Assembly (NCBI GenBank): GCA_964509565.1
Contig: CAZDXE010000001.1
Span: 3,670-67,669, forward strand
From: an uncultured Dehalococcoidales bacterium
GTDB taxonomy: Bacteria > Chloroflexota > Dehalococcoidia > GIF9 > AB-539-J10
Direction of reading: 5' to 3'
Length of the DNA stretch: 64,000 nt
In this document: one piece after another, positions 2,485 to 55,329 of the stretch
Numbering within the stretch: position 1 is the first letter of the stretch
How the letters are laid out: each line of letters begins with the position of its first letter
The notes under the pieces: model-generated
Told to the model about the DNA's origin: nothing
Seen by the model: only the letters and a program-made list of their open reading frames with translations
Database searches by the model: none
Program-made: the position numbers and the translations under genes

Positions 2485-2988
2485 ATGAAAATGTCAACTG
2501 AAATTATCAAGGAAGTAAGGGGAAGAACTAGCGCTGGTGTGCTTGAGTGTAAAAACGCGCTGCTGAAAACGGATGGAGATATAGAAAAAGCCATTGCGAA
2601 TTTAAGGAGTCGTGGATTAGCAATTGCCGAGAAGAAATCGTCACGTATGACCAGCAAGGGAATAATCGAAACATACATTCATCATACAGGGCAGATAGGG
2701 GTTTTGATAGAGATAAATTGCGAGACGGATTTTGTAACCCACACTGACGAATTCAAGCAACTTGCTCATGACATGGCTATGCAGGTAGCCGCTGCACACC
2801 CCCAATTTGTTACTGCGGAAGAAATACCGGCAGACGCAGATCTGGACCCGAAGGAAGTTTGCCTTCTTCTCCAACCTTTTATTAAAGACCCGGATAAGTC
2901 TGTGGAGGAAATTATTGCTGAAACGATAGGCAAGGTGGGCGAGAATATAAAGATACGCAGATTTGTCAGATTTGAAGTTGGCTGCTAG
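2485..2988 (+). CDS. tsf: Elongation factor Ts (short form)
   Basis: Immediately downstream of rpsB. N-terminal UBA-like GVLECKNALLKTDGDIEKAIANLR and the dimerisation core. GAGGT SD upstream. Confidence 0.9.
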   Translation: MKMSTEIIKEVRGRTSAGVLECKNALLKTDGDIEKAIANLRSRGLAIAEKKSSRMTSKGIIETYIHHTGQIGVLIEINCETDFVTHTDEFKQLAHDMAMQVAAAHPQFVTAEEIPADADLDPKEVCLLLQPFIKDPDKSVEEIIAETIGKVGENIKIRRFVRFEVGC

Positions 2989-3024
2989 TTAATTACACCT
3001 TTATTCCTCACCGAGGACAGTTTG

Positions 3025-33763: not shown

Positions 33764-35368
33764 TTAGTACTGTTTTATCCAAACTTTGCTCAAATCGGCA
33801 ATACCTAGCGGGTTAAATTCGTAATCCTGAACATAGGGTTTAACCAATGTATAGTTAATGCCAAACCATAACGGTAAGCAAGGAGCTGCCTCTATCACCT
33901 CCTGTTCAGCTTGCTGATACATGCTCAAGCGAATAGAGTTATCCTGTTCAATGGCAGCTTGAGTAAGCAACTTATCCAGCTCAGGATTGCTATAGCCAAA
34001 AATATTATTCTCGCTTCCAGTGTAAAACAGGTTATCCAAAAAATTATGTGGGTCGGGATAATCAGCCACCCAACCAAGCATAAACATCTCATCTCTCTCC
34101 TGCTTTATGTAATAAAGGTAATTCTCTGGCTCCAGTTGCCTTACCATTACTTCAACCCCAATATCCTGCTGCCACCCCTGGACAATAGCGCCCAGAGAAT
34201 CTGGAATATCATTACCATAACCTGAAACGGTGATGGTAATGGGCGGTAGATTCGAAGCGCTACCATATTTCGAAGCAGCAATAAATTCCGTTGCCTTTGC
34301 TACGTTGTAGTTAAGGCCTTCAAAATTTTCACTATAACCTGGCATGCCAGGTGGCAAAATGCCCTTAGCTTCAGTTACCATATCCCTTAATATCAACCTA
34401 ACAATGCGTCCCTTATCCACAGCACTGCAAAAAGCACGGCGAATATTAATATCATCGAAAGGAGCCCTGGTGATATCAAAGCCTATATAATAAAGGCTAA
34501 GCTCAGGCGTTATATCTAATTCCTGGTAAAATGGTTCACTTTTATCTCTAACCTGGTCGATGTAATACATGGAAACAGAAGTGATATCAATTTCGTCCTT
34601 CTCATACATAGTCATAGGCATACCCGACAGGAAATGAAAAATAACCTGTTTCACTCCGGCTGGTTGGCCGTAATAAAGCTCATTTCGTCGCAAAATCAAT
34701 TGCTGTTCCGGCTTCCATTCCTCCAGCTTGAAAGGGCCAGTCCCATCTGGCTGACGCCACCAATTTTCCCCAGTTTCCACGTTAACTCTATCAACAACAA
34801 ATGCAGTAGGATATGTCAACTTGCACAGGAAATAAGCTTTAGGAGCATCACTGGTTACCTCAAGGGTATAATCATCAAGGACTTTTACTCCTGAGATTTC
34901 TCCAACCTCGCCAGTTAGCATATCACTGGCGCCCACAATATCACCCAGATAAGTAGCTGCTGTTTGAGAGTCGGTAGCCGGGTCACAAGCACGTTCCCAG
35001 GAATATTTAAAATCGGTAGCCTTTACCTCTCTGCCACTATGAAACTTTACTTCGTGGCGAAGATAGAAAGTGTATGTTTTACCATCCTCGCTTCTCTCCC
35101 ACCTCTCTGCGATATCAGGCACCACATTTAGATTCTCATCAAGACGAACCAGGCCGCTAAAGATTTGCATGATATAGGCATGTGACGTCATTTCGCTGGA
35201 AATCGCTGGGTCAAGCGTTACAGGGCTACTGCCGCAAAGATCAAGGACATCATGGTTGAGTGATAATCCTTCAGGTTGACAACCGAGTGAAGGCAACAGC
35301 AATAGGACACACATAATGAGAGGTACCAGAATAGATTGCCAGATTTTTTTCATCATTTTGCTCTTCAC
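33764..35368 (-). CDS. ABC transporter substrate-binding protein, family 5 (oligopeptide/dipeptide/nickel OppA/DppA-like), lipoprotein
   Basis: Signal/lipobox LLLLPSLGC. SBP_bac_5 architecture. 534 aa. Confidence 0.85.
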   Translation of the reverse strand: MKSKMMKKIWQSILVPLIMCVLLLLPSLGCQPEGLSLNHDVLDLCGSSPVTLDPAISSEMTSHAYIMQIFSGLVRLDENLNVVPDIAERWERSEDGKTYTFYLRHEVKFHSGREVKATDFKYSWERACDPATDSQTAATYLGDIVGASDMLTGEVGEISGVKVLDDYTLEVTSDAPKAYFLCKLTYPTAFVVDRVNVETGENWWRQPDGTGPFKLEEWKPEQQLILRRNELYYGQPAGVKQVIFHFLSGMPMTMYEKDEIDITSVSMYYIDQVRDKSEPFYQELDITPELSLYYIGFDITRAPFDDINIRRAFCSAVDKGRIVRLILRDMVTEAKGILPPGMPGYSENFEGLNYNVAKATEFIAASKYGSASNLPPITITVSGYGNDIPDSLGAIVQGWQQDIGVEVMVRQLEPENYLYYIKQERDEMFMLGWVADYPDPHNFLDNLFYTGSENNIFGYSNPELDKLLTQAAIEQDNSIRLSMYQQAEQEVIEAAPCLPLWFGINYTLVKPYVQDYEFNPLGIADLSKVWIKQY

Positions 35369-36585
35369 CTATTAAGATGCCTGTTGAAACCAGTAACGGG
35401 GTTAATTGACGACACGGCAACTGTGCCAGGGTGTAACAATACTGTTTCCGCTGGAACCGCTGGAGTCACTAATGTTTCTCGCCAGCATACATCAAGCCCA
35501 TCCACATCAAAACCGTAAATTTCAGTCAAAGCTTCATCATAAGTGCTGCCATATTTAAGTATCGTTAGTAAGTTGAGCATTTTTTGCTGGCCATAATTAT
35601 GCAAGAGATATTCCACCAGGCTATAACTCTCAGCATACGAAAGGCAGGCTTTATCAGTCTCGGCAGAAAATAAACTGCACAAACTACGCACCGAAATCAA
35701 TTCGCCCTCTGAGATAGCACTATTTAGCCGCGTGCGGAAATAAGAACCCAGTTCACCCTGGTTATACATAGCCAATCCTTCATCAAGCCACGTAGGAAGC
35801 CTGCCATAAGGGCTGAAGGTCGTTTGGTGAACAACCAGGTGAGTCAATTCATGAACTAGAGCCTCCTTGCCCCAATCAATGTTATCAGGTGAAATGCCAA
35901 TGGCAATTATACTAAATTCAGTAAAGGCAACACCGCCTGTCCATTCCTGAGGAAAAATCATGGCTTCCTGTAAATCCATGGCTGAGGCATAAACATATAT
36001 CTTGATAGGTTTTTGTGGATAGGTGCCAAGATCTCGAGTTAATCTGTCAAGCCCCTGCTGACAGGCATCCATTAACTCCAAGGCAAAGGAGTCATCTCCT
36101 TTATACCAGAAAAGTGTTAGCTCATTATTTTCACCCTCAAGAGCCTGCGATTCATCAGGGAATTTACTACTGGTCAAACTTTGCCATTGATAACGATCAT
36201 CATCAAAGTGAATTACAGCAGGCAAAGTTTCAATTTCGTTTCCAATAGCATCCCTGATTGTCCACCAGTATGTTACAGTAGCCCCGGAAGGTAAGCTTGA
36301 TTTCCTCATATCCCATGTCCAGCTAGTCTTTATTTTGCTTGCTGGAGTAAAATCAGGCCAACCCTCACTGATAACTCGTGCGTAGTTCATTTTATCCACA
36401 TAATACTTGAGACGAGCATCGACAATATCAGCCTCACTCTCAGCTTCGATGTTGAAGACAAGCGCAACGGGAAAACGCAGCTCCACATCACTATCTAAAA
36501 CCACAATACCGCTATCAGCCTTAACAAAAGAAGATGTGCATATTGAAAAGAGTGCTAAAGCCATCAGGATGATTCGTTTAATCAT
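35365..36585 (-). CDS. Secreted hypothetical protein with peptidase-MA-like HExxH...E zinc-binding motif
   Basis: Signal peptide MIKRIILMALALFSICTSSFVKA. ..ALVHELTHLVVHQ...WLDEGLAMYNQ.. is HExxH plus a downstream Glu, as in gluzincins. Start and stop overlap neighbours by 4 nt on both sides. Confidence 0.6.
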   Translation of the reverse strand: MIKRIILMALALFSICTSSFVKADSGIVVLDSDVELRFPVALVFNIEAESEADIVDARLKYYVDKMNYARVISEGWPDFTPASKIKTSWTWDMRKSSLPSGATVTYWWTIRDAIGNEIETLPAVIHFDDDRYQWQSLTSSKFPDESQALEGENNELTLFWYKGDDSFALELMDACQQGLDRLTRDLGTYPQKPIKIYVYASAMDLQEAMIFPQEWTGGVAFTEFSIIAIGISPDNIDWGKEALVHELTHLVVHQTTFSPYGRLPTWLDEGLAMYNQGELGSYFRTRLNSAISEGELISVRSLCSLFSAETDKACLSYAESYSLVEYLLHNYGQQKMLNLLTILKYGSTYDEALTEIYGFDVDGLDVCWRETLVTPAVPAETVLLHPGTVAVSSINPVTGFNRHLNR

Positions 36586-37686
36586 TTCTCTTCGCCTACT
36601 TTGGAACGGAGATAAGCAGCGATAAACTTATCCAAATCACCATCCAATACAGCTTCAGCATTACCGGTTTCGCAACCAGTGCGATGATCCTTCACCATCT
36701 TATATGGATGAATGACATAGCTTCTAATTTGATTTCCCCACTCAACTTTGACCTGTTCACCCTTGAGCCTGGCTTTTTCCTTTTTCTTATTCTCACGCTC
36801 TAACTCAAGAAGACGCGTATAAAGTATTTTTAAAGCAGCTTCTTTGTTCTGGTGCTGTGATCTCTCACCCTGGCAGGAAGATGTTAACCCTGTAGGCAAG
36901 TGAGTTATCCTAACAGCGCTGCTTGTTTTCTGCATATGTTGCCCTCCAGGGCCGCTGGATCTGAAAGTATCTATTCTTAAATCCTCCTGGTTGATTTGAA
37001 TATCCAATTCCTTGTCTGCTTCGGGAAGAACCTCCACCATGGCAAAAGAGGTATGTCTGGCATGGTCGGCATCAAAAGGGGAAAGACGAACCAATCTATG
37101 GACACCATGCTCACATTTAAGATAGCCATAAGCGTAATCTCCTTTAATTTCTATAATGGCACTTTTGATGCCCGCTTCCTCGCCAGGAGAGACATCCAGA
37201 ATTTCGCTGTGGTAGTTACGTCTCTCTACCCATCGCAAATACATCCTGAACAACATACTGGTCCAATCCTGAGATTCTGTGCCTCCCGCGCCAGCATGAA
37301 AAGCTACTATGGCATTCCTGGTATCATACTCGCCGCTAAGAACTAATTGATTCTCTAATCGTTCGAACTGAGCGGTTATTTGCTGCAGTTCTTGCTGCAC
37401 CTCCTTCTCAAGAGAATGATCGTCTTCCTCAATAGCCAGATCAACCATCTCACAAAGATCAGTGACCTGTTTTTCTATCTCGCACCAGCTAGAAACTAGA
37501 CTCTGTTCCACTCTGAGGTGACGCATAGTAGCTTGAGCTTTGACTGGGTCATGCCAAAAATTAGGGCCAGCTGATTCTGTCTCTATCCTGGCAATCTCCT
37601 TTTCTTTTCCTGAAATGTCAAAGATGCACCATTATATCTGAAATCTGGTGACGTAGCGTTTCCAGCCGTTCTTTTTCTTCCTGCAT
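36582..37686 (-). CDS. prfB: Peptide chain release factor 2, requiring programmed +1 frameshift
   Basis: Frame 0 from the ATG at 37684-37686 (SD AAGGAG) encodes MQEEKERLETLRHQISDIMVHL and then hits TGA within CTT TGA C. A +1 shift continues DISGKEKEIARIE..., which joins the 314-aa track ORF. That ORF carries RF2 motifs (..SGPGGQHMQKTSSAVRITHLPTG.., GGQ) and an SPF-type domain. Confidence 0.9.
37617..37623 (-). other. RF2 autoregulatory +1 frameshift site CTT-TGA-C
   Basis: On the minus strand, CAT CTT TGA CAT: codon 22 is Leu (CTT), followed by in-frame UGA and then C. This is the same heptamer used in E. coli prfB. A weak GGTG SD-like sequence lies 5 nt upstream. Confidence 0.85.
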
Positions 37687-37721
37687 TTGTGCTCCTTTTA
37701 CTAATTAAAATAGTTTTCCTG

Positions 37722-38480
37722 CTACTTCGGTTCAGAGGATAATTTGCCGGCGGCGGCAAGGTGAGCCAGACGAGTAGGTTCAGGAAGGCGATACCCACGA
37801 CAGCACTTCATCACCCAATTTAGAGCCATTGTAAGGTTAACTTTATGGCCTACAGAGACATAAATTGGCTTTACTTTGACCTTAGTTCTCAATGCCGCTC
37901 CAACAATTTCTCCACTGTTAATCAATCCAGCAAAAGAGCCAGCTTCCTCCCCTACAAGCTCATGCTTGCCACACAGAATAGATTTAGCACAACCTATAGT
38001 AGGTATGTCAAGGAAAAGCCCTAAATGCGAAGCAAGCCCTAACTTCCTGGGATGTGCAATACCTTGGCCATCAACCAGAACAATGTCAGGAGTATTATAC
38101 AGCATTTCACAAACAGCCAATATTACGGGGCACTCTCGAAAAGATAGTAGTCCTGGTATATAAGGCAAAGTAACCTTGCTTTTGGTCACTTTAACTTCCA
38201 CTATGTTAAGTTCGGGGTACCCAAGTACTACCACTGCCCCTCGGGCCATGCCATGAGAATCTGGAGAAGATATATCCACGCCGGCAACAAGTTGTGGATT
38301 AATATCCTTATCAGTAATCACTACCTTACTTGCCAGCTTTAATTGTATTTCCCTGGCTTTGGCAAGGCTTACATCCCACCTGTGTAGATTGTTTATTTTC
38401 ACACCAACTTGAATTATAAGATAGTTTCCCCTGAAAACAAATACTCCAGCGTTCCGATTTGCCAATACTATTTTACCCAT
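37722..38480 (-). CDS. nfi: Endonuclease V (deoxyinosine 3' endonuclease)
   Basis: ..LVAGVDISS..ARGAVVVLGYP..LPYIPGLLSFRECP..PDIVLVDGQGIAHPRKLGLASHLG..IPTIGCAKS.. aligns to EndoV throughout. The true start may be the internal GTG at about 38402, since E. coli Nfi begins near the equivalent of WDVSLAKA. Confidence 0.82.
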   Translation of the reverse strand: MGKIVLANRNAGVFVFRGNYLIIQVGVKINNLHRWDVSLAKAREIQLKLASKVVITDKDINPQLVAGVDISSPDSHGMARGAVVVLGYPELNIVEVKVTKSKVTLPYIPGLLSFRECPVILAVCEMLYNTPDIVLVDGQGIAHPRKLGLASHLGLFLDIPTIGCAKSILCGKHELVGEEAGSFAGLINSGEIVGAALRTKVKVKPIYVSVGHKVNLTMALNWVMKCCRGYRLPEPTRLAHLAAAGKLSSEPK

Positions 38481-38549
38481 AAAGTATATTTCGCTATACT
38501 ATCCACATAGAGGATAAGAAATTTTTAAAGCAAGGAGGAGAGAAGACAG

Positions 38550-39932
38550 ATGAATTTTGCTGAGCTAAGTTTCAAGGAAGCCCCTAAAATCGTTACACAG
38601 ATACCAGGTCCAAAGACAAAATCCTTGATGGAAAAGGTCATGTCGTTTGACAGCAACTATGTATCATATCCCAGGACACTGCCTATAGCCATAGAAGAAG
38701 GCAAGGGAGCAACAATTAAAGATGTGGATGGCAACATATACATTGACCTTTTTGCAGGCATAGGAGTACTGAATTTTGGCTATTCAAATCCTTACATACT
38801 GAAATATGTCAGACAGCAGGAAGACAAATTAATTCATTGCCTTGATTTCCCTACGCCAACAAGACTTGAGTTTCTTCAAAAGTTAAGCGAGACTGCGCCG
38901 CTAGGCCTGAAAAATAATTGTAAAATTTTCCTTTGCGCCCCAACTGGTTCAGAGGCGGTAACAGCAGCAATCAGATTGGCTAAACTGCAAACAAAACGCA
39001 ACACCATACTATCATTTTGGGGAAGTTATCACGGTGCGAATGGCGAATCTTTCGCTGCAAGTTCGTGGACGGGTGGTTACAAAAGCCAGCACCTCCCAAT
39101 GCTTCCAGACACACATTTTGTCCCCTTCCCTTATTGTTACAGGTGCCCATTCGGGAAAAATTACCCTGGTTGTAATTTAGAGTGTTTCGAATTTCTCAAA
39201 AAGGTGTTGAAAAACGGCTTTTCAGGTGTTTGTAAACCCGCTGCTGTAATTTTAGAATCAGTTCAAGGTGAAGGTGGAATTCATATTCCACCCCGTGAAT
39301 ATGTGCAGGAACTCAGGAGAATTACTGAAGAGGAAGGCATCCTCTTAATATTTGATGAAGTCCAGTGTGGAATGTGTAGAACAGGCAAAATGTGGGCTTG
39401 TGAATACTATGGGGTAACTCCAGATATTATGACTTCAGCAAAATCACTTGGTGGCATAGGGCTTCCCTTAGCGGCAGTTTTCTATAAAAAAGAGCTGGAT
39501 AATTGGCCACCCGGAACCAGCATAGGGACCTTTAGAGGAAATGCGCTGGGAGTAGCTGCCGGGCTAGGAGCTTTAGATTTCATTAGAGAAACAGATTTAT
39601 TGAGCCATGTTGAAACAATCAGCAAGATATTAAACAACGGATTGAACAAACTGAAAGATAAATATGAGGTAATAGGCGAAGTGCGGCAGCAAGGATTAAT
39701 GGCTGCAATTGAATTTGTCAAAGATAGAAAAACCAAGGAGCCATGGAAGGAATTTCTTGATGCTGTGTTGATAGAATGCCTTAGGCGAGGCTTATTCCCA
39801 TGGAAGGCAGGCTACTATTTTAATGTTCTTCGTTTACTGCCTCCACTTGTTATTACTGAAGAATTAATGAATAAATCAATTACAATTCTTGGAGAAGTAA
39901 TTGACGATATAATAAAAAAGGAGGAACTATAG
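38550..39932 (+). CDS. Class-III (omega-amine) PLP-dependent aminotransferase
   Basis: ..[38 protein letters not shown].. with the conserved PLP-lysine region. 460 aa. AAGGAGGAG SD. Confidence 0.88.
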   Translation: [460 protein letters not shown]

Positions 39933-39934
39933 AA

Positions 39935-41284
39935 ATGATCAAAGGAGCAAAAGTAGGAGAGAAAAGACCTGTACCTGGAGAAAAAGGGAAGCAATTACTT
40001 AAATTGAGGAATGAATATGTTCCTCGCGGTGGGTTCCACACAGCACCCATTTTTATTGCCAAGGGCAAAGGTGCCATAACTGAAGATGTTGATGGGAATG
40101 AGTATATCGACTTCTGTGGTGGCATTGCTTGTCTCAATACAGGACATTGCCATGAGAAAGTCGTCGCAGCAGTAAAGGACCAAGTAGATAAATTCATGCA
40201 CGTCTCCTTCAATGTGTTCATGTACGAATCATTTGTTCAACTAGCGAAGGAAATTTGTGAAAGCACACCGGGCAATTTCCCCAAAAAAGCATACTTTTTC
40301 AATAATGGAGCTGAGGCTGTTGAAAACGCAGTTAAAATAGCCAGAAGATATACTGGTAGATACAACATACTTGCATTCGAACACGCATTTCATGGAAGAA
40401 CTCTACTCACCATGGGGTTGACCAGCAAGGTAAAGTACTACAAGTATGGTTTCGGTATAACCGACATAGGAATTATGCGAGTTCCTTATGCTTATTGCTA
40501 CAGGTGCCCACATAAATTAAGCTATCCTACATGTGGAATGCATTGCCTCAACAGAATCGAGGATATGTTCAAAACCTATTCTCCAGCTGACAGCATTGCG
40601 GCAATACTCGTAGAACCAGTTTTAGGCGAGGGAGGATATGTTATTCCACCAAAAGAATTTATCAAAGGGCTAAGAGATCTGTGTAACAAATATGACATCC
40701 TCTTCATAGCCGATGAAATACAAGCTGGCATGGGGCGCACAGGGAAAATGTGGTCAATAGAACATTTCGATGTTGTCCCTGACCTGATGACAATAGGTAA
40801 AAGTCTATCAGGTGGAATGGTCTTAACAGGCACCGTAGGACGGGCAGACGTAATGGATTCAGTTGAAACAGGAGGAATAGGTGGAACATTCTCAGGTCAT
40901 CCGCCTGCGTGTGTGGCTGCGCTAGAAGTGCTGAAAGTGTTTAAGGAAGAGAAGCTCGTGGACAGATCCGCCATGCTGGGTAAACTTACCAAAGGTAGAT
41001 TGGAGGAAATGAAGAATAAATATAGCATAATAGGCAACGTTAATGGTATCGGAAGCATGCTGGGGCTTGAATTAGTCAAAGATCGAAAAACAAAACAACC
41101 TGCAGCAGCCGAAACTAAAGAGATAATGAAAAACTGTCACGAGCACGGCTTAATGATTATGAACTGTGGTACGCTTGGTAATGTTCTTCGTTTCATTTAC
41201 CCATTGGTAATCAAAGAGGAAGAATTGATGAAGGGATTAGATATATTAGAAAATGCCATAAAGGAGACAAGTAAATCCATATAA
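39935..41284 (+). CDS. Class-III PLP-dependent aminotransferase (paralog of upstream gene)
   Basis: ..FIADEIQAGMGRTGKMWSIEHFDVVPDLMTIGKSLSGG.. 449 aa. Starts 2 nt after the upstream paralog's stop. Confidence 0.88.
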   Translation: MIKGAKVGEKRPVPGEKGKQLLKLRNEYVPRGGFHTAPIFIAKGKGAITEDVDGNEYIDFCGGIACLNTGHCHEKVVAAVKDQVDKFMHVSFNVFMYESFVQLAKEICESTPGNFPKKAYFFNNGAEAVENAVKIARRYTGRYNILAFEHAFHGRTLLTMGLTSKVKYYKYGFGITDIGIMRVPYAYCYRCPHKLSYPTCGMHCLNRIEDMFKTYSPADSIAAILVEPVLGEGGYVIPPKEFIKGLRDLCNKYDILFIADEIQAGMGRTGKMWSIEHFDVVPDLMTIGKSLSGGMVLTGTVGRADVMDSVETGGIGGTFSGHPPACVAALEVLKVFKEEKLVDRSAMLGKLTKGRLEEMKNKYSIIGNVNGIGSMLGLELVKDRKTKQPAAAETKEIMKNCHEHGLMIMNCGTLGNVLRFIYPLVIKEEELMKGLDILENAIKETSKSI

Positions 41285-41311
41285 AATAAACCGGGGATTT
41301 AAGGATCAAAT

Positions 41312-41389
41312 TAGCTAAAGGCAATCACGGACTTGAGCTCAGTAAAGAAAACAGGGAGCCATAATTATTTCGAGGATTGCCTTTAGCTA
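41312..41389 (+). promoter_or_regulatory. Structured 5' leader or intergenic element bounded by a 15-bp perfect inverted repeat (TAGCTAAAGGCAATC ... GATTGCCTTTAGCTA), upstream of the AOR gene
   Basis: Arms at 41312-41326 and 41375-41389 enclose a 48-nt interior containing the palindrome TGAGCTCA. It lies 30 nt before the AOR SD (AGGAGG) and is too long-looped to be a simple intrinsic terminator. Confidence 0.35.
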
Positions 41390-41420
41390 TGAAGTTGATT
41401 TCAATAAAAGAGGAGGTAAG

Positions 41421-43151
41421 ATGGACGGATTCTACAACAAAATTTTGCGCATTAATGTTAGCAAGAAATCATTTGAACAGGAACCGGTCAGCGATGAAAT
41501 CTACCAAACATTATTAGGAGGCAAAGGCCTTGCCACACATCTGCTGGTGAACAACACAAAAGCAGGAGTTGACCCTTTATCAGAAGGCAACGTGCTCATT
41601 TTCGCTACAGGGCCTGTTACAGACACGGCAGTTTGGGGCTCTTCCAGATATGGGGTATTCACCAAAGCTCCTTTAACGGGATTATATGCTGAATCTTATT
41701 CCGGGGGTAAAGTTGCTGAGCCGCTGAGTAGAACTGGCTATGACGCGATAATGATCGAAGGAGCTTCTAAAAACCCTGTTTATCTTGAGATTTCTGACGG
41801 AGATGTAAAATTTCATAATGCATCTCATATCTGGGGAAAGGACACCTACGAAACAGAGGATATTATAAAACAAGAAGTTGGCATAAAAAATGCAGGAGTT
41901 GTCGTTATAGGGCCCGCTGGTGAAAATTTGGTGCGATTCGCCTGCATCGAAAATGATTACTGGAGGTCGGCTGGCAGAACAGGAGTTGGAGCAGTAATGG
42001 GCTCTAAGAAAATTAAGGGCATCGCCTTCCATGGTAACAAGAAGAGGAAAGTGGCAAACCCCGACTTACTTAAGAAGCTGAGTACGGAACTAAAAGATAT
42101 AGGCAAAGATAATCCTGGAGCAAAGAACTACAGAAGTTTTGGGACATTACAAATGGTACCTATCATGAACAAAGTTGGGGCATTCCCCACAAAATACTGG
42201 CATGCAGGAACTTATGATAAATGGCAAAACTTAACTCAGGATGCCTTACAGAAGAAAGCTAAAGTACGATCACACGCATGCCCAAGATGTTTTATGGGCT
42301 GTGGAAGGTTGACTGAGGTGCTTGAAGGCAGGCACAAGGGACTAAAACAGGAATTAGATTATGAAACTGTAGGTGCTTTTGGTGGAGTATGCCTGATAGA
42401 TGATATCGTGGAAGTTGTGTATCTAAACGATATATGTGACAGATTGGGCATGGATACCATAACTGCAGGCAACCTGGCAGGTTTTACCATAGAAGCTTCT
42501 CACTTAAAAGATATCGGAGAGAAAATTGAATATGGAGATGTTGACGCTATTGCTGCTTTGTTAAATAAAATGGCAATGAAAGAAGGTATCGGGGCTATTC
42601 TGGCCGAAGGCATAAAACATGCCAGCAAAGAATGGGGCCTCGAGGATTTGGCTATTCATGTCAAAGGAATGGAACCTGCATGCTATGATCCAAGGGTTTT
42701 GTATGGAATGGGTTTAGCATTTGCCACTTCGGACAGAGGCGCATGTCATTTAAGAGCAACTTTCTATAAAGCAGAGCTTTCAGGGGCGATATCCCCAACT
42801 GCAGTCGAGGGTAAAGCAGAGATGCTTATCGATTTCGAAGATAGGCACAATCTTTTCGACGCCCTGATTTTGTGCAGATTTTTCAGAGACCTGTACCCGT
42901 GGGAAAAAATTTCAACAGTCATAAACGCAACTACGGGAATGGAGCTAGATAAGAAGCAACTGCAGAAAGTGGCTTCAGCTATTGCAAATAAGGTTAGGGA
43001 GTTTAACCTGCGCGAGGGAATGAATAAAGAGATAGACGAAACACTGCCAAAGAGATTTTTCGAGGAAAAACTTGAGGATAGTGGCAAGGTATTACCCAAA
43101 GCTAGTTTTGACAGGATGTTATCTGATTATTATAAACTCAAAGGGTGGTAA
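41421..43151 (+). CDS. Aldehyde:ferredoxin oxidoreductase (tungsten/molybdopterin AOR family)
   Basis: MDGFYNKILRINVSKKSFEQEPVSDEIYQTLLGGKGLATHLL.. N-terminal AFOR_N domain and C-terminal AFOR_C with the Cys ligands of the [4Fe-4S] cluster (..CPRCFMGCG..). 576 aa. Confidence 0.9.
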   Translation: MDGFYNKILRINVSKKSFEQEPVSDEIYQTLLGGKGLATHLLVNNTKAGVDPLSEGNVLIFATGPVTDTAVWGSSRYGVFTKAPLTGLYAESYSGGKVAEPLSRTGYDAIMIEGASKNPVYLEISDGDVKFHNASHIWGKDTYETEDIIKQEVGIKNAGVVVIGPAGENLVRFACIENDYWRSAGRTGVGAVMGSKKIKGIAFHGNKKRKVANPDLLKKLSTELKDIGKDNPGAKNYRSFGTLQMVPIMNKVGAFPTKYWHAGTYDKWQNLTQDALQKKAKVRSHACPRCFMGCGRLTEVLEGRHKGLKQELDYETVGAFGGVCLIDDIVEVVYLNDICDRLGMDTITAGNLAGFTIEASHLKDIGEKIEYGDVDAIAALLNKMAMKEGIGAILAEGIKHASKEWGLEDLAIHVKGMEPACYDPRVLYGMGLAFATSDRGACHLRATFYKAELSGAISPTAVEGKAEMLIDFEDRHNLFDALILCRFFRDLYPWEKISTVINATTGMELDKKQLQKVASAIANKVREFNLREGMNKEIDETLPKRFFEEKLEDSGKVLPKASFDRMLSDYYKLKGW

Positions 43152-43356
43152 GTATACCTTCCCCAAGATACTCATAACTCGGAATACTGTGGCCGGAGAA
43201 TATGAATCTCCGACCACATGTTAGATCATGCAACTATAAATTTTTACCAATTCCTGGTAAGGAGCATGCCATTCAGGTCAATTGCGGTAAACCTATATTT
43301 CAAATTTAGGTCTCTTTCTACTACTAGATTTGCTACCATTTTCTCTTTCCACTGAA

Positions 43357-44454
43357 CTAAAGGTGAATTGACCCGTGGGCAGGTGATCCATGGCTATCGA
43401 AGAATCCAGCTAACTCATCCCGTTTAAATTGAGGTAAATCGCATACTCCTGCTATAGTGTGTATCTTCAGTCCTTTTTTCGCTTCCACTATTTTCCCTAT
43501 GACGTTGGCATTAATCCCAATTTTATGTAGCCCTTCCAACAATCTGGAAGTCTCGGAAGAAGGCAGTGTAATAATCAAGGCTCCCGATGCTAATAAACCA
43601 AGAGGGTCAATTTCAAATTTGCCACAGATAGCCTTGCACTCAGCCAAAACAGGTATATTTTCCCCTTCCACCAAAATGCCAACCTGTGCTGCAGTAGCTA
43701 TTTCCAAAAGCCCTGTAGCTAATCCACCCTCGGTAGGGTCATGCATTGAGTGCACAGTCACCATTGAGCACGCAGTTAGTGCCTCCTTGACCACGCTAAT
43801 CCCTGGGGAAAAGAGGTAATTTGCCGCACGCTGGACCAAATTTTTATTTAACCCTGCGGAGAGAAGAGCTTTCTCTGCTTCCTGTGCCAGTACAGCCGTC
43901 CCCTCGATGGCAATTCCCTTTGTAAGCACAACATCGTCGCCCAACATGGCTCCAGATGTAGTTATTATAGACCCTTCCTCAGCTTCCCCCAGCATACACC
44001 CAACCACCACAGGGCGATTGAAATCATAAGTTATCTCAGTATGTCCCCCTACAAGAGTAACCCCCAGAGAATTACAAGCAGAAAGTACCTGGTCGAAAAT
44101 CTTTTCCGCTTCCTGATGGGTTGATTGTTCAGGAAGGAGAATGGTCGCCAGAAACCAGCGTGGCTTCACTCCCATAGTAGCGATGTCATTGGCATTAACA
44201 TGAACCACATACCAACCAATAAAATCAGTAGCAAATGTCACCGGGTCCGTTTTAGCCACCAATAATTTGTGACCGCATTTTATCACCGCCGCGTCTTCGC
44301 CAATACGAGGACCGAGAATGACCTGCTCATCCTCTATCTTAATTTTATCCAGAAAATTTCTAAGTAAGTCTGATGGGAGTTTACCGACATTCAAAGAATC
44401 CATTTTAAAATTTTGATTATAGTTGCATATCTCGAAGGTGGGGTAACAACCCAC
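43357..44454 (-). CDS. AIR-synthase-related (PurM-like superfamily) protein of unknown function
   Basis: PurM-like N and C domains (..GEDAAVIKCGHKLLVAKTDPV.., ..HDPTEGGLATGLLEIA..). Lacks the HypE C-terminal PRIC Cys motif, so it is not assigned to HypE, ThiL or SelD. 3 nt downstream of iorB. Confidence 0.72.
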   Translation of the reverse strand: MGCYPTFEICNYNQNFKMDSLNVGKLPSDLLRNFLDKIKIEDEQVILGPRIGEDAAVIKCGHKLLVAKTDPVTFATDFIGWYVVHVNANDIATMGVKPRWFLATILLPEQSTHQEAEKIFDQVLSACNSLGVTLVGGHTEITYDFNRPVVVGCMLGEAEEGSIITTSGAMLGDDVVLTKGIAIEGTAVLAQEAEKALLSAGLNKNLVQRAANYLFSPGISVVKEALTACSMVTVHSMHDPTEGGLATGLLEIATAAQVGILVEGENIPVLAECKAICGKFEIDPLGLLASGALIITLPSSETSRLLEGLHKIGINANVIGKIVEAKKGLKIHTIAGVCDLPQFKRDELAGFFDSHGSPAHGSIHL

Positions 44455-44457
44455 CTC

Positions 44458-45102
44458 TTATTTTGCCCGATACTTATCTATGCCCTCTTCATTTAACTCG
44501 ACATCGCCAATGCCCATTTCAAGAGCCTTTAAGTTCAATTTCATCTTTCCGTGCGGAAAGATATTCCACATTTCATTCTCAACATCCGCCCTTTCCAGAA
44601 CAAGTTGGCCTGAACCAATGAGAGCTCCTACCATAATAATATTCACAACTATGGGAGCGCCCAGTTTCGATGCTATACTTGTAGCATCTACAAGCCAGAC
44701 TAACTTAGAAAGCTTTACAATTGCTTCCTTAAGTTCATCACAACCAGGGTATTCCTCTTTTTCTGAAAGTGCTCCTATTGTCAAGATAGGATGTGTATTG
44801 GTTACACACACTACTCCTGGGTTTCCATATCGCTGTAGCATCCTTAAAGTCTCCAGAGGTTCAAGTCCGAGAATAAGATGAGCTTTACCTTGTGGAATTA
44901 GCGGCCCATAATGCCCTTTAGTAAATATCCTGAGGGTACTAAAAACGGCGCCGCCCCTCTGGCTAGCCCCAAATGTTTCTCCTATAGTGACATGATAGCC
45001 CTTCTTCATCAACGCATTACCTATTAAGCCTGAGATTAAGATGTTCCCTTGACCCCCAACTCCACAAATAATCAGGTTTAATGGGTCACAAGAAATAGCC
45101 AT
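44458..45102 (-). CDS. iorB: Indolepyruvate (aromatic 2-oxoacid):ferredoxin oxidoreductase beta subunit
   Basis: ..LIICGVGGQGNILISGLIGNALMKKGY.. is a typical IorB N-terminus. 214 aa. 1-nt overlap with iorA. Confidence 0.88.
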   Translation of the reverse strand: MAISCDPLNLIICGVGGQGNILISGLIGNALMKKGYHVTIGETFGASQRGGAVFSTLRIFTKGHYGPLIPQGKAHLILGLEPLETLRMLQRYGNPGVVCVTNTHPILTIGALSEKEEYPGCDELKEAIVKLSKLVWLVDATSIASKLGAPIVVNIIMVGALIGSGQLVLERADVENEMWNIFPHGKMKLNLKALEMGIGDVELNEEGIDKYRAK

Positions 45103-47018
45103 TATTTTATATTCTCCTTAACGATAGCTTTATATGGGCATATATCAACACAGACTCCACACCCAGTACAAACTTCCTCCAGCACTTGTGCCTTATCAAC
45201 CTCCTTATCATGGAATAAAGCAGGACACTGAAACTCCCTGTAGCAAAACCCGCACTTTCCCCCCCCACATTTTTCTGGATCAACCCAAACTCTATACGGG
45301 CGGGCCCGCTCCTCTTTCATTCGAACCAATTCACACTTTCTACGTAAAATCAGGACCTTAGGCCCATTCTCATCTTTCAGCAACTCACAGAGAGTGATTG
45401 TGGTCCCCTTTATATCAAAAGGGTCTCTCACTTGTACTTTGCACCCTATAGCACGACAAAGGCTCTCAATAGACACTACGGGGGCTGGGTCCTGAGTGGC
45501 AGTTCTACCTGTCCCTGGGTGAGGTTGGAAACCAGTCATTCCCGTAGCACCATTATCTAGCACTAACAGCGTCATGCTCGACTTGTTATAAACAGCGTTA
45601 ATTAACGCTGGGATTGATGCGTGAAAAAATGTTGAGTCGCCGCATATCCCAATAGACGGCTGTTCCGACCCTAAAGAGGCAAGCTGGCCAAAACCACAGG
45701 CCGACCCTGCTCCTGAGCCCATGCAATGCACTATATTGCTCTGGTGAGGGCCATAGGGAAATACGTCCAGTGTGTAACAACCAATATCACCAACCACCAC
45801 CACCTTTCTACCATCACGTTTTATGGCCTTCTTTAAAGAGAGAAAGCTAGCCCGATGAGGGCACCCAGGGCACCAGAGCATGCCGCGGTCAATGACCAGC
45901 GGCTTAGCTGTATCCTGAACCATCTGCTCATAACTAGTTTCTCTCGCCCGATATTGCAATTTCAAGATTTCAGCCAGGGCGCATATTATTCCATCCGGTG
46001 TTATCTCACCGACAGGGTTTATATGGCCAGAATCTTTACCATATATTTCCAGGGGCAGTACCGTATCTAAATACAATGTTGCTGTTTCTCTCACGTGAGC
46101 TTCGACAAAAGGATCCACTTCCTCTGCCACGAGTACCCTGGTTGTCAATTTTAAGTATTTAGCAACAAATTTCTTGGGGAACGGCCACAGAGTCACCAGT
46201 TTCAGAATTCCCACTGATTCACTCAAGCCCAGTGTTTCTACAGCCTCAAGAGAGCATGGCCAGCCACTACCACTACAGATTATCAGCAGCTCTGGTTGCT
46301 CTGGTCCTGTATATGAATTGAAAGGGCTGGACTCAAACATCTCTTGAACCTTGAGCATCTTCTCATGCAAAATGGCATGTTTCGGTGTAGTCGGGAAGGG
46401 AATATAGTGTTTAGTGGTATCGAATACAGCTTTCTTCTCTGGCCGGGATATTTTCCCGAGCTTGACATCACCATGTGAATGGGACAGTCGTGTATAGCTC
46501 CTCAAGAAACACCAGCATTTCAACTCCTCAGATAAATCAAATGCCCACCTGGTCAAATCCTTGGCCTCCTGCACATCTGTTGGCTCTAAAAGGGGGGCAC
46601 TGGCTATTTTAGTTATCCAGCGTGTATCAGCTTCATCATCACTGGAATGAGCTTGCGGATCATCACATACAACTACCAGCAATGCTCCTCCCCCATCACC
46701 TATACCTGTCAGGTTAAGGTGCGTCAAGAAATCCATTGCTACACTTGCACCAGCATTCTTCATGGCAGCAAGTCCTCTCAATCCAGAAAAAGCTGCTGAC
46801 GCTGCTACTTCTGTAGCTACCTTCTCATTGACAGACCATTCCACATGAATACCAATATTTTTAGCAACTGTGGCAAGTGTTCCAATAATTTCTGAGGAAG
46901 GCGTCCCTGGATAAGCAGCGCAGAAGTGCACTCCTGCCTCAAGTGCACCCCTGGCTATTGCTTCATTGCCAAGCAGCAGCGCAGAAGTGTCTGCTTCTTG
47001 CCCCATGATGTCTCGCAT
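45102..47018 (-). CDS. iorA: Indolepyruvate:ferredoxin oxidoreductase alpha subunit (TPP, 2x[4Fe-4S])
   Basis: ..LLLGNEAIARGALEAGVHFCAAYPGTPSSEI.. N-terminus, TPP domain, and C-terminal CxxCxxCxxxCP ferredoxin motifs (CTGCGVCVDICPYKAI). 638 aa. Confidence 0.9.
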   Translation of the reverse strand: MRDIMGQEADTSALLLGNEAIARGALEAGVHFCAAYPGTPSSEIIGTLATVAKNIGIHVEWSVNEKVATEVAASAAFSGLRGLAAMKNAGASVAMDFLTHLNLTGIGDGGGALLVVVCDDPQAHSSDDEADTRWITKIASAPLLEPTDVQEAKDLTRWAFDLSEELKCWCFLRSYTRLSHSHGDVKLGKISRPEKKAVFDTTKHYIPFPTTPKHAILHEKMLKVQEMFESSPFNSYTGPEQPELLIICSGSGWPCSLEAVETLGLSESVGILKLVTLWPFPKKFVAKYLKLTTRVLVAEEVDPFVEAHVRETATLYLDTVLPLEIYGKDSGHINPVGEITPDGIICALAEILKLQYRARETSYEQMVQDTAKPLVIDRGMLWCPGCPHRASFLSLKKAIKRDGRKVVVVGDIGCYTLDVFPYGPHQSNIVHCMGSGAGSACGFGQLASLGSEQPSIGICGDSTFFHASIPALINAVYNKSSMTLLVLDNGATGMTGFQPHPGTGRTATQDPAPVVSIESLCRAIGCKVQVRDPFDIKGTTITLCELLKDENGPKVLILRRKCELVRMKEERARPYRVWVDPEKCGGGKCGFCYREFQCPALFHDKEVDKAQVLEEVCTGCGVCVDICPYKAIVKENIK

Positions 47019-52921: not shown

Positions 52922-53361
52922 ATTTATTAATTCCCCCCCTTTTTTTATTCTTACTTAAGTTAGCCCCGCAATTTAAACTACCATCCAATCATAATACCAC
53001 TCACCCCCTTTTTTCTAAGATTTCCCCTCTTCTATTACAAGGCTCATTTCAAGTGTACCTCAAAAAAAATGTGGAGGTCAATACATGGTGAAAATCCCAT
53101 TTTTTCGACATGCTTTGCTTAACTACCGGCTACAGTTTCTCATCTGATGCTTCGAGGAAGTTTCTCCTAAAGGGCAAACCTTGATACAGCTACCTTTACA
53201 ATACTGGAAGTCATTAAACTTGTGACAGGCGTTCTATATAAGTACATGCTGGCGTAACATAGCATACCGCTTTGGTAGCGAAGTCTGGGCGCACTGAAAA
53301 TAGCGCCTGCCTATTCCTGCAACGCGTTGTTGAGAAGACATGGCGCAGCCTGAGGGCATCC

Positions 53362-53616
53362 TCATATTATATCCAAAATGTTTCCAACCGCGTCTTCACC
53401 ACCACTTAGTATATCTAAATCATATATCTCCGTATATCCACAATTGTTACATGAAGCAAAGATATATCGGTTGTGTTGAATATTAAAAATCTTTGAAACT
53501 CCTGTTCCCGCCATCGCTAAGCTCTTGACGCTTGCACCCGTATTGTGGCACTGCGGGCATTTGAATCTGTGATATAGGCGAACTTCTCGCCATTCTATTT
53601 CTCCTTCCCATTTAGG
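53362..53616 (-). pseudogene. Remnant or disrupted small zinc-ribbon protein gene (MqsA/YgiT-like CxxC...CxxCG fold)
   Basis: The 85-codon minus-strand frame 53362-53616 encodes ..EWREVRLYHRFKCPQCHNTGASVKSLAMAGTGVSKIFNIQHNRYIFASCNNCGYTEIYDLDILSGGEDAVGNILDII*. It has no ATG, GTG or TTG start before the zinc-binding pair. An ATG at 53601-53603 with a perfect AAGGAG SD is in the +1 frame and terminates after 36 codons. Confidence 0.3.
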
Positions 53617-54055
53617 TTAACAGAATAATTCAAGTGGGTCACTTGTTCTTTTGTTCCCGTTCAATGTTATCTACTATAGCCTTTTTTAGCCATTGGGTTA
53701 GCGTTTTTTGGTAATGGCCGCCATATGAGCTTGGTGGCTGACAAAGCCTGGACACGGTGATTAGGTCGGTGAAGTATGAGTGCATTTTGAAGTTGCACAG
53801 GGATTTTATTTATGATTAGAGTGAATCTATTGGCTAATCAAAAAGGAGAGTTTGCCTTGTCAATAGTAAGGGGCCTCACTAGATTCTCACAACTTTATCT
53901 GTCTAATCGTAGGGATGCAGTCTACTACAGCGATAAGCAACTTTGCATTTTTAGCTATTGCTCTAGTAAAAGATTTCGCCGCTCATCTAATCTCATGCTG
54001 GCAAGTTTATTGTAGTTTGTTTTTTCCTTGGAGCCTGCAGGCTCTGGTCGAACAT

Positions 54056-54091
54056 CGAAGCACAGGGGCTCATGTTGGCCCCTGTGCTTCG
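54056..54091. terminator. Strong hairpin (14-bp perfect stem CGAAGCACAGGGGC / GCCCCTGTGCTTCG, 8-nt loop), 5 nt downstream of the saccharopine-dehydrogenase-family gene stop
   Basis: Seen directly. Lies just 3' of the minus-strand stop at 54097. The flanks are not strongly U-rich on either strand, so it may be a factor-dependent or bidirectional terminator, or an RNA-stability element. Confidence 0.45.
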
Positions 54092-54096
54092 GATTT

Positions 54097-55329
54097 CTAT
54101 GATATGGTTACGTCTTTCGAGTGTGTTTCCGTGAATTTCACTGGAGCGCCCATGTCAGCCATCCGCTTCATAAACCTCATCGGCTCAAGGCATTCTGGGG
54201 CGATTATTCCCCTGTTCGCCTCGCCTGCCATGCACATTTTTGCTCCTACAATTGCTGACAGGGCGACACCGATTTTCGTCGTCCCAAATTTGTGATAGTA
54301 TCCAAGAGTTTCTTCAGTGGTCGCGTTCGACCTGGCCAATTTGTAAATGACGTTTTCGCCTGATTTACTTCCTTTCACCTCCACCAGCATACAGTGACGA
54401 TGTTTAACAGGAGCGCCAGCAGTTCTTTCATCCTCAGTAAAGAACATGTCGCTCGGAGCATGCACCATCTTCAATAAGACATCGATCGGTGCAACTTTGG
54501 CACCACGTACATCAATGGCCTCTTTGCTGGCAAATCCCATCTTAACCAGTGAGCCTGCTGTAGGATCTACGGGGTATTTGAAGGTGCAATTCTTAATGCC
54601 TTTGCCAATGAAATGTGGCAGCGTTACCGATTCGTCATGTGCGTGGTGGCATACTGTGACTGGGCCAACCTGGTTGGGGAAATCATATTCCTCGCAACCG
54701 CTGAAGGGAAGGTGTTTCGTGTATTTTCCATCAATGAATCCTGCTGCCTCGATGGCATAATCCGTTAGTGCTACTTCAGGAGACCATGTTGGTTGCCATG
54801 CACTGACTATTTCCTTAGATTTTTCTAGAGCCTTGCCGGCGAGTCTAATGTGTATCTCATCAACTCGATCCAGTTTGTCTGCTGCATATCGAGCCATTAC
54901 GTTTGTTACTCCCGGGGTTGCACCACAGCTGATCAAGGCAGTCAATCCAATCCTCTTGAATTCATCGTTGAGTGTAAGTGGTTGGTCTTGCATGATTTCC
55001 GACTTGAACGGCTCGCTATAAGCCGCATCTACGTAGTGCGCGCCGCATCTCACAGCGGCTTGCATTACGTTAAAGTCGAACTGAAGCAGAGTCAGATTGA
55101 TGATGACATCGACTCCTTTAGCTGCTGCCTCGACGCTTTCAACAGAAGAGGCATCTATTTTTACGGTTCTGATTTTGCCACTCTTTATTCGATCCTTTAC
55201 CTTGTTAGCCAGATTAAGGTCGATATCACCTAGCACTATTTCGGATATATCATTATCCCTGGCCAAGATCGATGCGCAAGGGCCACCCTGAGCTCCGGCT
55301 CCTACTATCAGTACTTTCTTACCGCTCAT
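54097..55329 (-). CDS. Saccharopine-dehydrogenase-family NAD(P)-binding protein (lysine-6-dehydrogenase/carboxynorspermidine-synthase-like)
   Basis: KKVLIVGAGAQGGPCASILARD Rossmann N-terminus and the Sacchrp_dh architecture. 410 aa. Confidence 0.78.
   Translation of the reverse strand: MSGKKVLIVGAGAQGGPCASILARDNDISEIVLGDIDLNLANKVKDRIKSGKIRTVKIDASSVESVEAAAKGVDVIINLTLLQFDFNVMQAAVRCGAHYVDAAYSEPFKSEIMQDQPLTLNDEFKRIGLTALISCGATPGVTNVMARYAADKLDRVDEIHIRLAGKALEKSKEIVSAWQPTWSPEVALTDYAIEAAGFIDGKYTKHLPFSGCEEYDFPNQVGPVTVCHHAHDESVTLPHFIGKGIKNCTFKYPVDPTAGSLVKMGFASKEAIDVRGAKVAPIDVLLKMVHAPSDMFFTEDERTAGAPVKHRHCMLVEVKGSKSGENVIYKLARSNATTEETLGYYHKFGTTKIGVALSAIVGAKMCMAGEANRGIIAPECLEPMRFMKRMADMGAPVKFTETHSKDVTIS

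Follow-up and report, generated by a model that had tools for sequence, protein, structure and literature searches.

The spacer between a class-III aminotransferase gene and the gene of an aldehyde:ferredoxin oxidoreductase (AOR) bears a perfect 15-bp inverted repeat. The repeat is under selection, its arms being maintained whatever the origin of the element. Our leading explanation, to which we give a probability of roughly 45%, is that a clade-specific palindromic insert has been kept as an intercistronic mRNA hairpin for processing, stability or insulation. Co-transcription with the neighboring genes, action at the RNA level and the specific mechanism (processing or stability) are inferred.

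The inverted repeat and its operon

Re-reading of the sequence confirmed the 15-bp perfect inverted repeat that a preliminary description had reported, namely TAGCTAAAGGCAATC at 41312-41326 and its exact reverse complement GATTGCCTTTAGCTA at 41375-41389, together with the 48-nt interior between the arms and the TGAGCTCA palindrome at 41334-41341. Across the 64-kb window (the whole stretch of DNA analysed here), 41312-41389 is the only site (n = 1) with a perfect inverted repeat of at least 15 bp and a loop of up to 100 nt. Block shuffles of the window never yielded such a 15-bp repeat (0/100), and a 12-bp repeat appeared in 23% of them. In the other intergenic gaps of the window the longest perfect repeat measures 5-9 bp; a 14-bp repeat at 54056-54091 stands out as the single exception. 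The 15-bp repeat is far beyond chance. Its arms start 63 bp apart, the GC content of the stem is 40% and the tail 3' of the stem is UGAAGUUGAUUUC; the arm ends read AAAT/TAGC and GCTA/TGAA. The element can be described by the arm pattern GCTAAAGGCAAYC-N20-60-GRTTGCCTTTRGC. The features of the region are listed below.

38550..39932, + strand: class-III aminotransferase gene 1, 460 aa (Pfam Aminotran_3, E 1.8e-95), first gene of the operon
39935..41284, + strand: class-III aminotransferase gene 2, 449 aa, GABA-transaminase-like (Pfam Aminotran_3, E 7.8e-124)
41303..41309, + strand: predicted outer helix, 5' strand GGAUCAA (minimum-free-energy fold and RNAalifold consensus)
41312-41326, + strand: left arm TAGCTAAAGGCAATC, 3/15 columns variable among 10 orthologs
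41327-41374, + strand: interior, with predicted inner helix, small apical helix and TGAGCTCA at 41334-41341
41375-41389, + strand: right arm GATTGCCTTTAGCTA, 2/15 columns variable among 10 orthologs, with the pyrimidine run CCUUU
41395..41401, + strand: predicted outer helix, 3' strand UUGAUUU (minimum-free-energy fold and RNAalifold consensus)
41410..41416, + strand: Shine-Dalgarno GAGGAGG of the AOR gene (from the sequence), GGAGG unchanged in all orthologs, predicted mostly unpaired
41421..43151, + strand: AOR family gene (aldehyde:ferredoxin oxidoreductase), 576 aa (Pfam AFOR_N, AFOR_C)

The two aminotransferase genes are 2 nt apart, and the left arm starts 27 nt downstream of the stop codon of the second. 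The first one matches the NCBIfam acetylornithine and diaminobutyrate transaminase models below their cut-offs, and the top NCBIfam match of the second is 4-aminobutyrate--2-oxoglutarate transaminase (494-531 bits, slightly below the cut-offs). The nearest homologues of the AOR belong to Dehalococcoidia/Chloroflexota MAGs. The operon probably turns an omega-amine into an aldehyde, and the aldehyde into an acid; an aminotransferase making the aldehyde and an AOR oxidising it would constitute a coherent pathway. The synteny of aminotransferase and AOR is kept in clades with and without the element, and the remaining window is housekeeping chromosome (tRNA synthetases, IF3, L20, RRF, EF-Ts, RF-2).

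The element had been placed in the 5' leader of the AOR gene, a location that has to be revised, as it lies within a 136-nt intercistronic spacer, which begins right after the stop codon of a same-strand aminotransferase gene. Its distance to the ribosome-binding site, previously given as 30 nt, is actually 20 nt to the Shine-Dalgarno and 31 nt to the ATG (41421). The hairpin lies 7 nt from the A-rich run preceding the Shine-Dalgarno, and it includes neither the Shine-Dalgarno nor a U-tract. Near the operon start there is a sole promoter-like site (TTTACC-17-TATACT at 38472-38500), and scanning of the spacer between aminotransferase gene 2 and AOR detected no sigma-70-like promoter and no canonical terminator. 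Promoter-like and terminator-like consensus sites are not enriched in the window over shuffles.

Several other assignments of the spacer were tried and rejected. A sigma-54 promoter (TGGCAC-N5-TTGC, GG and GC 12 nt apart) would have to use GG at 41320-41321 and TTG at 41333-41335, with a spacing 3 nt too long and no GC where one is needed, while a promoter inside the loop (TTGAGC ... CATAAT) would have a 21-nt spacing and a -10 that is not conserved, in a stretch deleted in L082. An upstream ORF from the ATG at 41389 is not conserved coding sequence, its frame being shifted by a 2-nt indel between two clades. For an integron attC site, GTTGATT (41394-41400) fits the R' consensus GTTRRRY at 6/7 positions, but GTT becomes ATT in L084 and L131; there is no R'' RYYYAAC on the left, the flanks are conserved operon and no integrase is found nearby.

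As RNA, the 78-nt element has a predicted energy of -28.7 kcal/mol (z = -5.6), and the 7-bp outer helix lengthens the predicted structure to about 99 nt. Within the stem follows a 4-bp inner helix (CGGA/UUCG, 41328-41331/41369-41372), retained in the 88% clade, yet with a shifted register. The interior was originally thought to be multi-stem; the predicted fold is a nested rod instead, consisting of the inner helix and a small apical helix with no multi-branched junction. This long rod-like fold is retained by all orthologs, the deletion variant included (z = -4.6 to -6.7), and in 10/10 orthologs the + strand fold beats the - strand by 4-16 kcal/mol. The predicted fold of 10/10 orthologs also presents the near-continuous double-stranded RNA of about two helical turns with symmetric repeats that characterizes RNase III-type targets. 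In silico, the predicted accessibility from Shine-Dalgarno to AUG is 0.71 with the hairpin intact and 0.72 with the hairpin cleanly deleted.

Distribution and divergence among relatives

AOR loci were gathered from collections of genomes and assemblies. All 13 loci with an AOR 87-98% identical to that of the window (L081, L126, L127, L128, L129, L130, L001, L082, L083, L084, L131, L132, L133) contain the element. It is absent from four sister loci (L120 and L121, with an AOR identity of 84%, L122 with 82% and L002 with 80%), in which the same aminotransferase-AOR junction measures 32-37 nt and harbors a ribosome-binding site only. The upstream regions of 43 more distant AOR loci showed no comparable hairpin, and their longest perfect repeats were of 5-8 bp, apart from one unrelated 12-bp repeat. 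This distribution shows the element to be a recent, clade-restricted gain of about 100 nt in marine Dehalococcoidia, and no part of a regulation conserved among AOR genes; because the sister clades lack it, it is not essential for AOR expression. A derivation of the right arm from the ancestral spacer, based on a TTGCCT common to the sister loci, was rejected, since a 6-mer match is at chance level.

Some further observations were made on these loci. In L048, a Desulfatirhabdium MAG, the 200 nt upstream of AOR include a perfect inverted repeat of 12 bp (GGAAATGTCATT); its loop measures 65 nt, and 80 nt separate its end from the start of AOR. Unrelated to the element, it is the sole further long repeat in the 44 AOR upstream regions. 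In L082 and L083 (JGI 3300033388 and 3300033144; element region of L082 at 2892-3000), a single aminotransferase gene is located upstream of AOR, not two. The divergent gap between endonuclease V and aminotransferase gene 1 is 323 nt long in the 88% clade (L131, 6810-7132) and 69 nt long in the window (38481-38549), the extra sequence in L131 being unrelated to the hairpin element.

Rates of change were calculated from a 10-sequence ortholog alignment. In the arms 5/30 columns are variable (0.17 changes per site), in the interior 28/48 (0.75 changes per site), and the flanks show about 0.43 changes per site; the arms change approximately four times slower than the interior. Fourfold-degenerate sites, used as the neutral yardstick, gave 0.17-0.22 against L001 and 0.41-0.56 against L084, and the intergenic gap downstream of AOR, used as a control, gave 0.23 against L001 and 0.37-0.39 against L131/L133. 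The interior of the window differs at 15/48 positions from L001 and at 21/48 from L084, while the arms differ at 1/30 from L001 and likewise at 1/30 from L084/L133 (hand binomial for arm constraint, P ~4e-3 for L001 and ~2e-5 for L084/L133). These rates indicate that the arms are strongly constrained and that the interior evolves neutrally. L082 and L083 have lost 27 nt of the apex and have kept a 14-bp stem and the inner helix.

Counted by lineage, eight arm substitutions were inferred. In five of them a transition (A-to-G at L2, R2 and R11 of the arms, C-to-T at L4) turns the pair into G-U on the + strand and into an A.C mismatch on the - strand, although this wobble-compatible excess is weak (hand binomial against a 1/3 null, ~0.09). 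The pair-breaking 3/8 comprise a T-to-G at 41316 in two lineages and a G-to-A at the stem top. The 15-bp stem has zero double compensatory changes, and the outer helix has one compensatory pair (C-G replaced by U-A in L130 and in the 88% clade; other lineages show the intermediate C.A). Formal covariation was not significant among the seven distinct, shallow sequences, in which a single pair has changed on either side and 307/500 shuffles attain the observed score.

The T-to-G at 41316 (arm position L5) occurs in L081/L126/L127 and separately in L131/L132, with a G.A mismatch each time; its recurrence could represent a parallel change or a recombination patch. The flanking genes diverge to different degrees between the window and L084: aminotransferase 2 (39935-41284 in the window, 1519-2868 in L084) differs at 158/449 residues with a fourfold divergence of 0.57, and AOR at 70/576 residues with a fourfold divergence of 0.41. 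Between these two genes the arms are identical at 29/30 positions. The contrast between the two genes may reflect constraint of unequal strength, or recombination with a boundary close to the spacer.

A proposed intercistronic mRNA hairpin and its rivals

In the reading we prefer, a palindromic insert of roughly 100 nt, located between aminotransferase gene 2 and AOR in a three-gene operon, would be transcribed with the operon, from the + strand. The RNA would form a long rod made of the 7-bp outer helix, the 15-bp stem, the 4-bp inner helix and an apex that can be dispensed with. What selection maintains is the stem and not the loop, and therefore a cis-acting double-stranded determinant of mRNA processing or stability is most likely. 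The hairpin may be a target of RNase III-type or other double-strand-specific processing, an obstacle that stops 3' exonucleases and so stabilises the aminotransferase segment upstream of it, or an insulator before the AOR ribosome-binding site. With any of these options, expression of AOR would no longer be tied to that of the aminotransferase genes preceding it, and in none would the hairpin sense a ligand. RNA-level action on the coding strand is favoured, not proven. There is precedent in the Correia elements of Neisseria, palindromic elements that are co-transcribed in mRNAs and form hairpins bound by RNase III, which are then cleaved or protected (PMC2649163). Against the hairpin reading count the non-significant covariation, the weak wobble excess, the three pair-breaking arm changes and the sister clades that lack the element. 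The constraint on the 15-bp stem also counts against it, being tighter on each pair than a pure stability barrier would call for, which points to sequence-specific recognition.

It is unlikely that the element is a palindromic mobile element, selfish or in decay (of MITE, REPIN-like or Correia-like type), with the arms as terminal repeats and no host function. A MITE/REPIN-like origin is plausible, and an insertion of this kind is the simplest way to account for a 100-nt palindrome that arrived ready-made: relative to the sister clades there is an insertion of ~100 nt, and its anatomy is close to that of REPINs (two invariant inverted 15-mers, 63 bp, a less conserved spacer). The ends read TA...TA, compatible with a TA target duplication, although TAGCTA is itself palindromic, so that such a duplication is indistinguishable from the repeat, and the empty sites of the sister loci are too diverged for the boundaries to be placed. 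However, dead orthologous copies should decay uniformly, whereas here the arms are far below the neutral rate and the interior is neutral. A covariance model of the element (R1) was applied to the window, with filters off, and to 34 loci. The 64 kb of the window yielded no second copy, and ~200 kb of Chloroflexota loci and ~25 kb from three more loci of the clade yielded orthologous copies only. Plasmid and phage collections gave no blastn match to the spacer, no transposase and no RAYT (Y1 transposase) was found among the 30 window ORFs scanned, and the GTAG/CGTC tag is missing at the arm ends. A metagenome scan with the pattern GCTAAAGGCAA-N15-45-TTGCCTTTRGC returned 35 unrelated hairpins of heptamer-repeat or terminator-like type and overlooked JGI contigs in which orthologous copies are known, which makes it uninformative on dispersal; viral contigs gave 0 matches with the same pattern.

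It is improbable that the element works at the DNA level, with the arms as an inverted pair of binding sites for a sequence-specific protein such as a roadblock or a looping repressor. Such a protein would account for the strong conservation of both arm sequences, not of pairing alone, and for the lack of double compensatory changes in the 15-bp stem, and the centre-to-centre spacing of 63 bp is about six helical turns. Yet the apparently intact lineage of L082 and L083 shortens this spacing by 27 bp, changing the helical phase. Furthermore, the arm changes favour G-U on the + strand, which folds better in all orthologs. A search of the window with the arm motif found copies not above chance (no regulon), and a scan of ten ORFs around the operon (33764-47018) revealed no transcription-factor domain.

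We are equally doubtful about a terminator or attenuator without U-tract that would cause partial termination after the aminotransferase genes. The preliminary judgement that a simple terminator is unlikely was upheld, as a scan of 40800-41800 found none and the element has no U-tract and a large loop. A non-canonical variant gains some credit from this genome region, where canonical hairpin-plus-U-tract terminators are not enriched (15 found vs 17.7 expected) and where another strong U-tract-less hairpin 6 nt past a gene end (54056-54091) means that non-canonical terminators may be used. On the other side, a 48-nt interior, an AU-rich stem and no U-tract are unlike intrinsic terminators, which combine a GC-rich stem, a loop of 3-8 nt and a U-tract right behind the stem. 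Downstream of AOR, where the operon truly ends, there is no hairpin of this sort, and no promoter that AOR could call its own is recognisable in the gap.

The hairpin at 54056-54091 deserves a description of its own. It is a 14-bp perfect, GC-rich hairpin, CGAAGCACAGGGGC with a loop of 8 and GCCCCTGTGCTTCG, lacks a U-tract and is located 6 nt beyond the stop of a saccharopine-dehydrogenase-like gene (54097-55329, - strand). A second palindrome, GGAGCCTGCAGGCTC, is established at 54030-54045, and both edge a 1175-nt stretch (gap 52922-54096) without a Pfam-matching ORF. These palindromes (54030-54091) may indicate U-tract-less terminators in this genome.

A more elaborate scheme, a clade-specific translational switch of a novel type, would explain the conservation of both arm sequences and not of pairing alone, if true, and we hold it for quite improbable. 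In this model the 15-bp helix would lock away an anti-Shine-Dalgarno (GCCUUU), and a trans factor taking the left arm would free the right arm to pair with the AOR Shine-Dalgarno, turning AOR translation off; the factor would possibly be a small RNA or a protein responding to aldehyde/amine load or tungsten supply. When the left arm alone is scrambled in silico, the predicted accessibility of the Shine-Dalgarno falls from 0.71 to 0.44, since GCCUUU in the right arm, once released, is able to pair with the Shine-Dalgarno. The duplex of right arm and Shine-Dalgarno is weak, about -8 kcal/mol, and generic for any pyrimidine run.

The least probable reading is a ligand-sensing riboswitch (Moco/Tuco-type, as in the preliminary description, or of a new class) controlling AOR, which draws on the position upstream of a tungsten/molybdopterin enzyme gene and on a closing helix around an interior region. 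An Rfam covariance scan of 41100-41600 with E up to 10 gave only three snoRNA-model matches (E at least 0.7) and no RF01055; the whole window at the gathering threshold gave four tRNAs and nothing else, and an Rfam scan of 16 related AOR loci gave no riboswitch. The structure is confined to one shallow clade and is missing in the nearest sister loci (80-84%) and in the 43 other AOR loci. The Moco/Tuco reading had itself been staked on a covariance-model match and on conservation across AOR orthologs; it is refuted because neither was found. Independently of those searches, an interior with 28/48 variable columns that has lost 27 nt in L082 and L083 leaves no conserved aptamer core, the predicted fold is a rod and not a junction, and the hairpin contains neither Shine-Dalgarno nor terminator. 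Slow arms around a neutral interior are the opposite of a riboswitch, whose conserved part is the core inside the closing helix. In practice, one false riboswitch candidate is removed.

Should the mRNA hairpin indeed adjust AOR expression against that of the aminotransferases, the recruitment of a palindromic insert for post-transcriptional control would here have a date, given by the presence of the element at an AOR identity of at least 87% and its absence at 84% or less. The case would moreover come from an uncultured, slow-growing subsurface lineage (Dehalococcoidia) in which gene regulation is almost unknown.

Comparison with known palindromic elements and riboswitches

The element is a lineage-specific member of the familiar palindromic intercistronic hairpins, with a sequence family that is undescribed. 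With the Moco/Tuco riboswitch (RF01055) it shares the position upstream of a molybdopterin/tungstopterin enzyme gene, but has no match to the model and lacks the conserved interior, the multi-stem junction and the phylogenetic spread.

REPINs are REP doublets that form hairpins and are mobilised by RAYT transposases (PMC3116915, PMC3337134); their invariant 16-mers lie 71 bp apart with a less conserved spacer (PMC3116915), and REPs usually bear a GTAG or CGTC tag (PMC3733652). The likeness lies in the two invariant inverted stretches of ~15-16 nt (63 bp from start to start in the element, 71 bp in the REPIN), the less conserved spacer, the long hairpin predicted in ssDNA or mRNA and the extragenic location. 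However, REPINs are defined by their abundance in the genome and a cognate RAYT, whereas the element is single copy in the sequence examined and has neither RAYT nor tag. Conservation of the arms is seen among paralogous copies in REPINs, and among orthologous copies here.

Like the Correia elements (CREE/NEMIS), the element is an inverted-repeat-bounded sequence of ~100-150 nt that lies between or 5' of genes and, on our reading, would be part of the transcript; the long stem relies on symmetric ends, and the sequence is present in some lineages and missing at the same site in others. Correia elements differ in having 100-250 copies per genome and a conserved core, against one copy in the sequence examined here. 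They share no sequence similarity with the element, they belong to Neisseria and not to Chloroflexota, and action of RNase III is shown for Correia only.

Finally, intercistronic stem-loops set differential mRNA stability within operons, as the REP sequences of E. coli malEFG and the stem-loops of the Rhodobacter puf operon do. As in these systems, a stable hairpin is predicted between cistrons of one operon and would act whatever its loop sequence. The malEFG and puf hairpins are usually GC-rich, of ~10-15 bp and with small loops, whereas the element is AU-rich, with a perfect 15-bp stem, a 48-nt interior and flanking helices, and its per-site conservation exceeds what a simple stability barrier requires.
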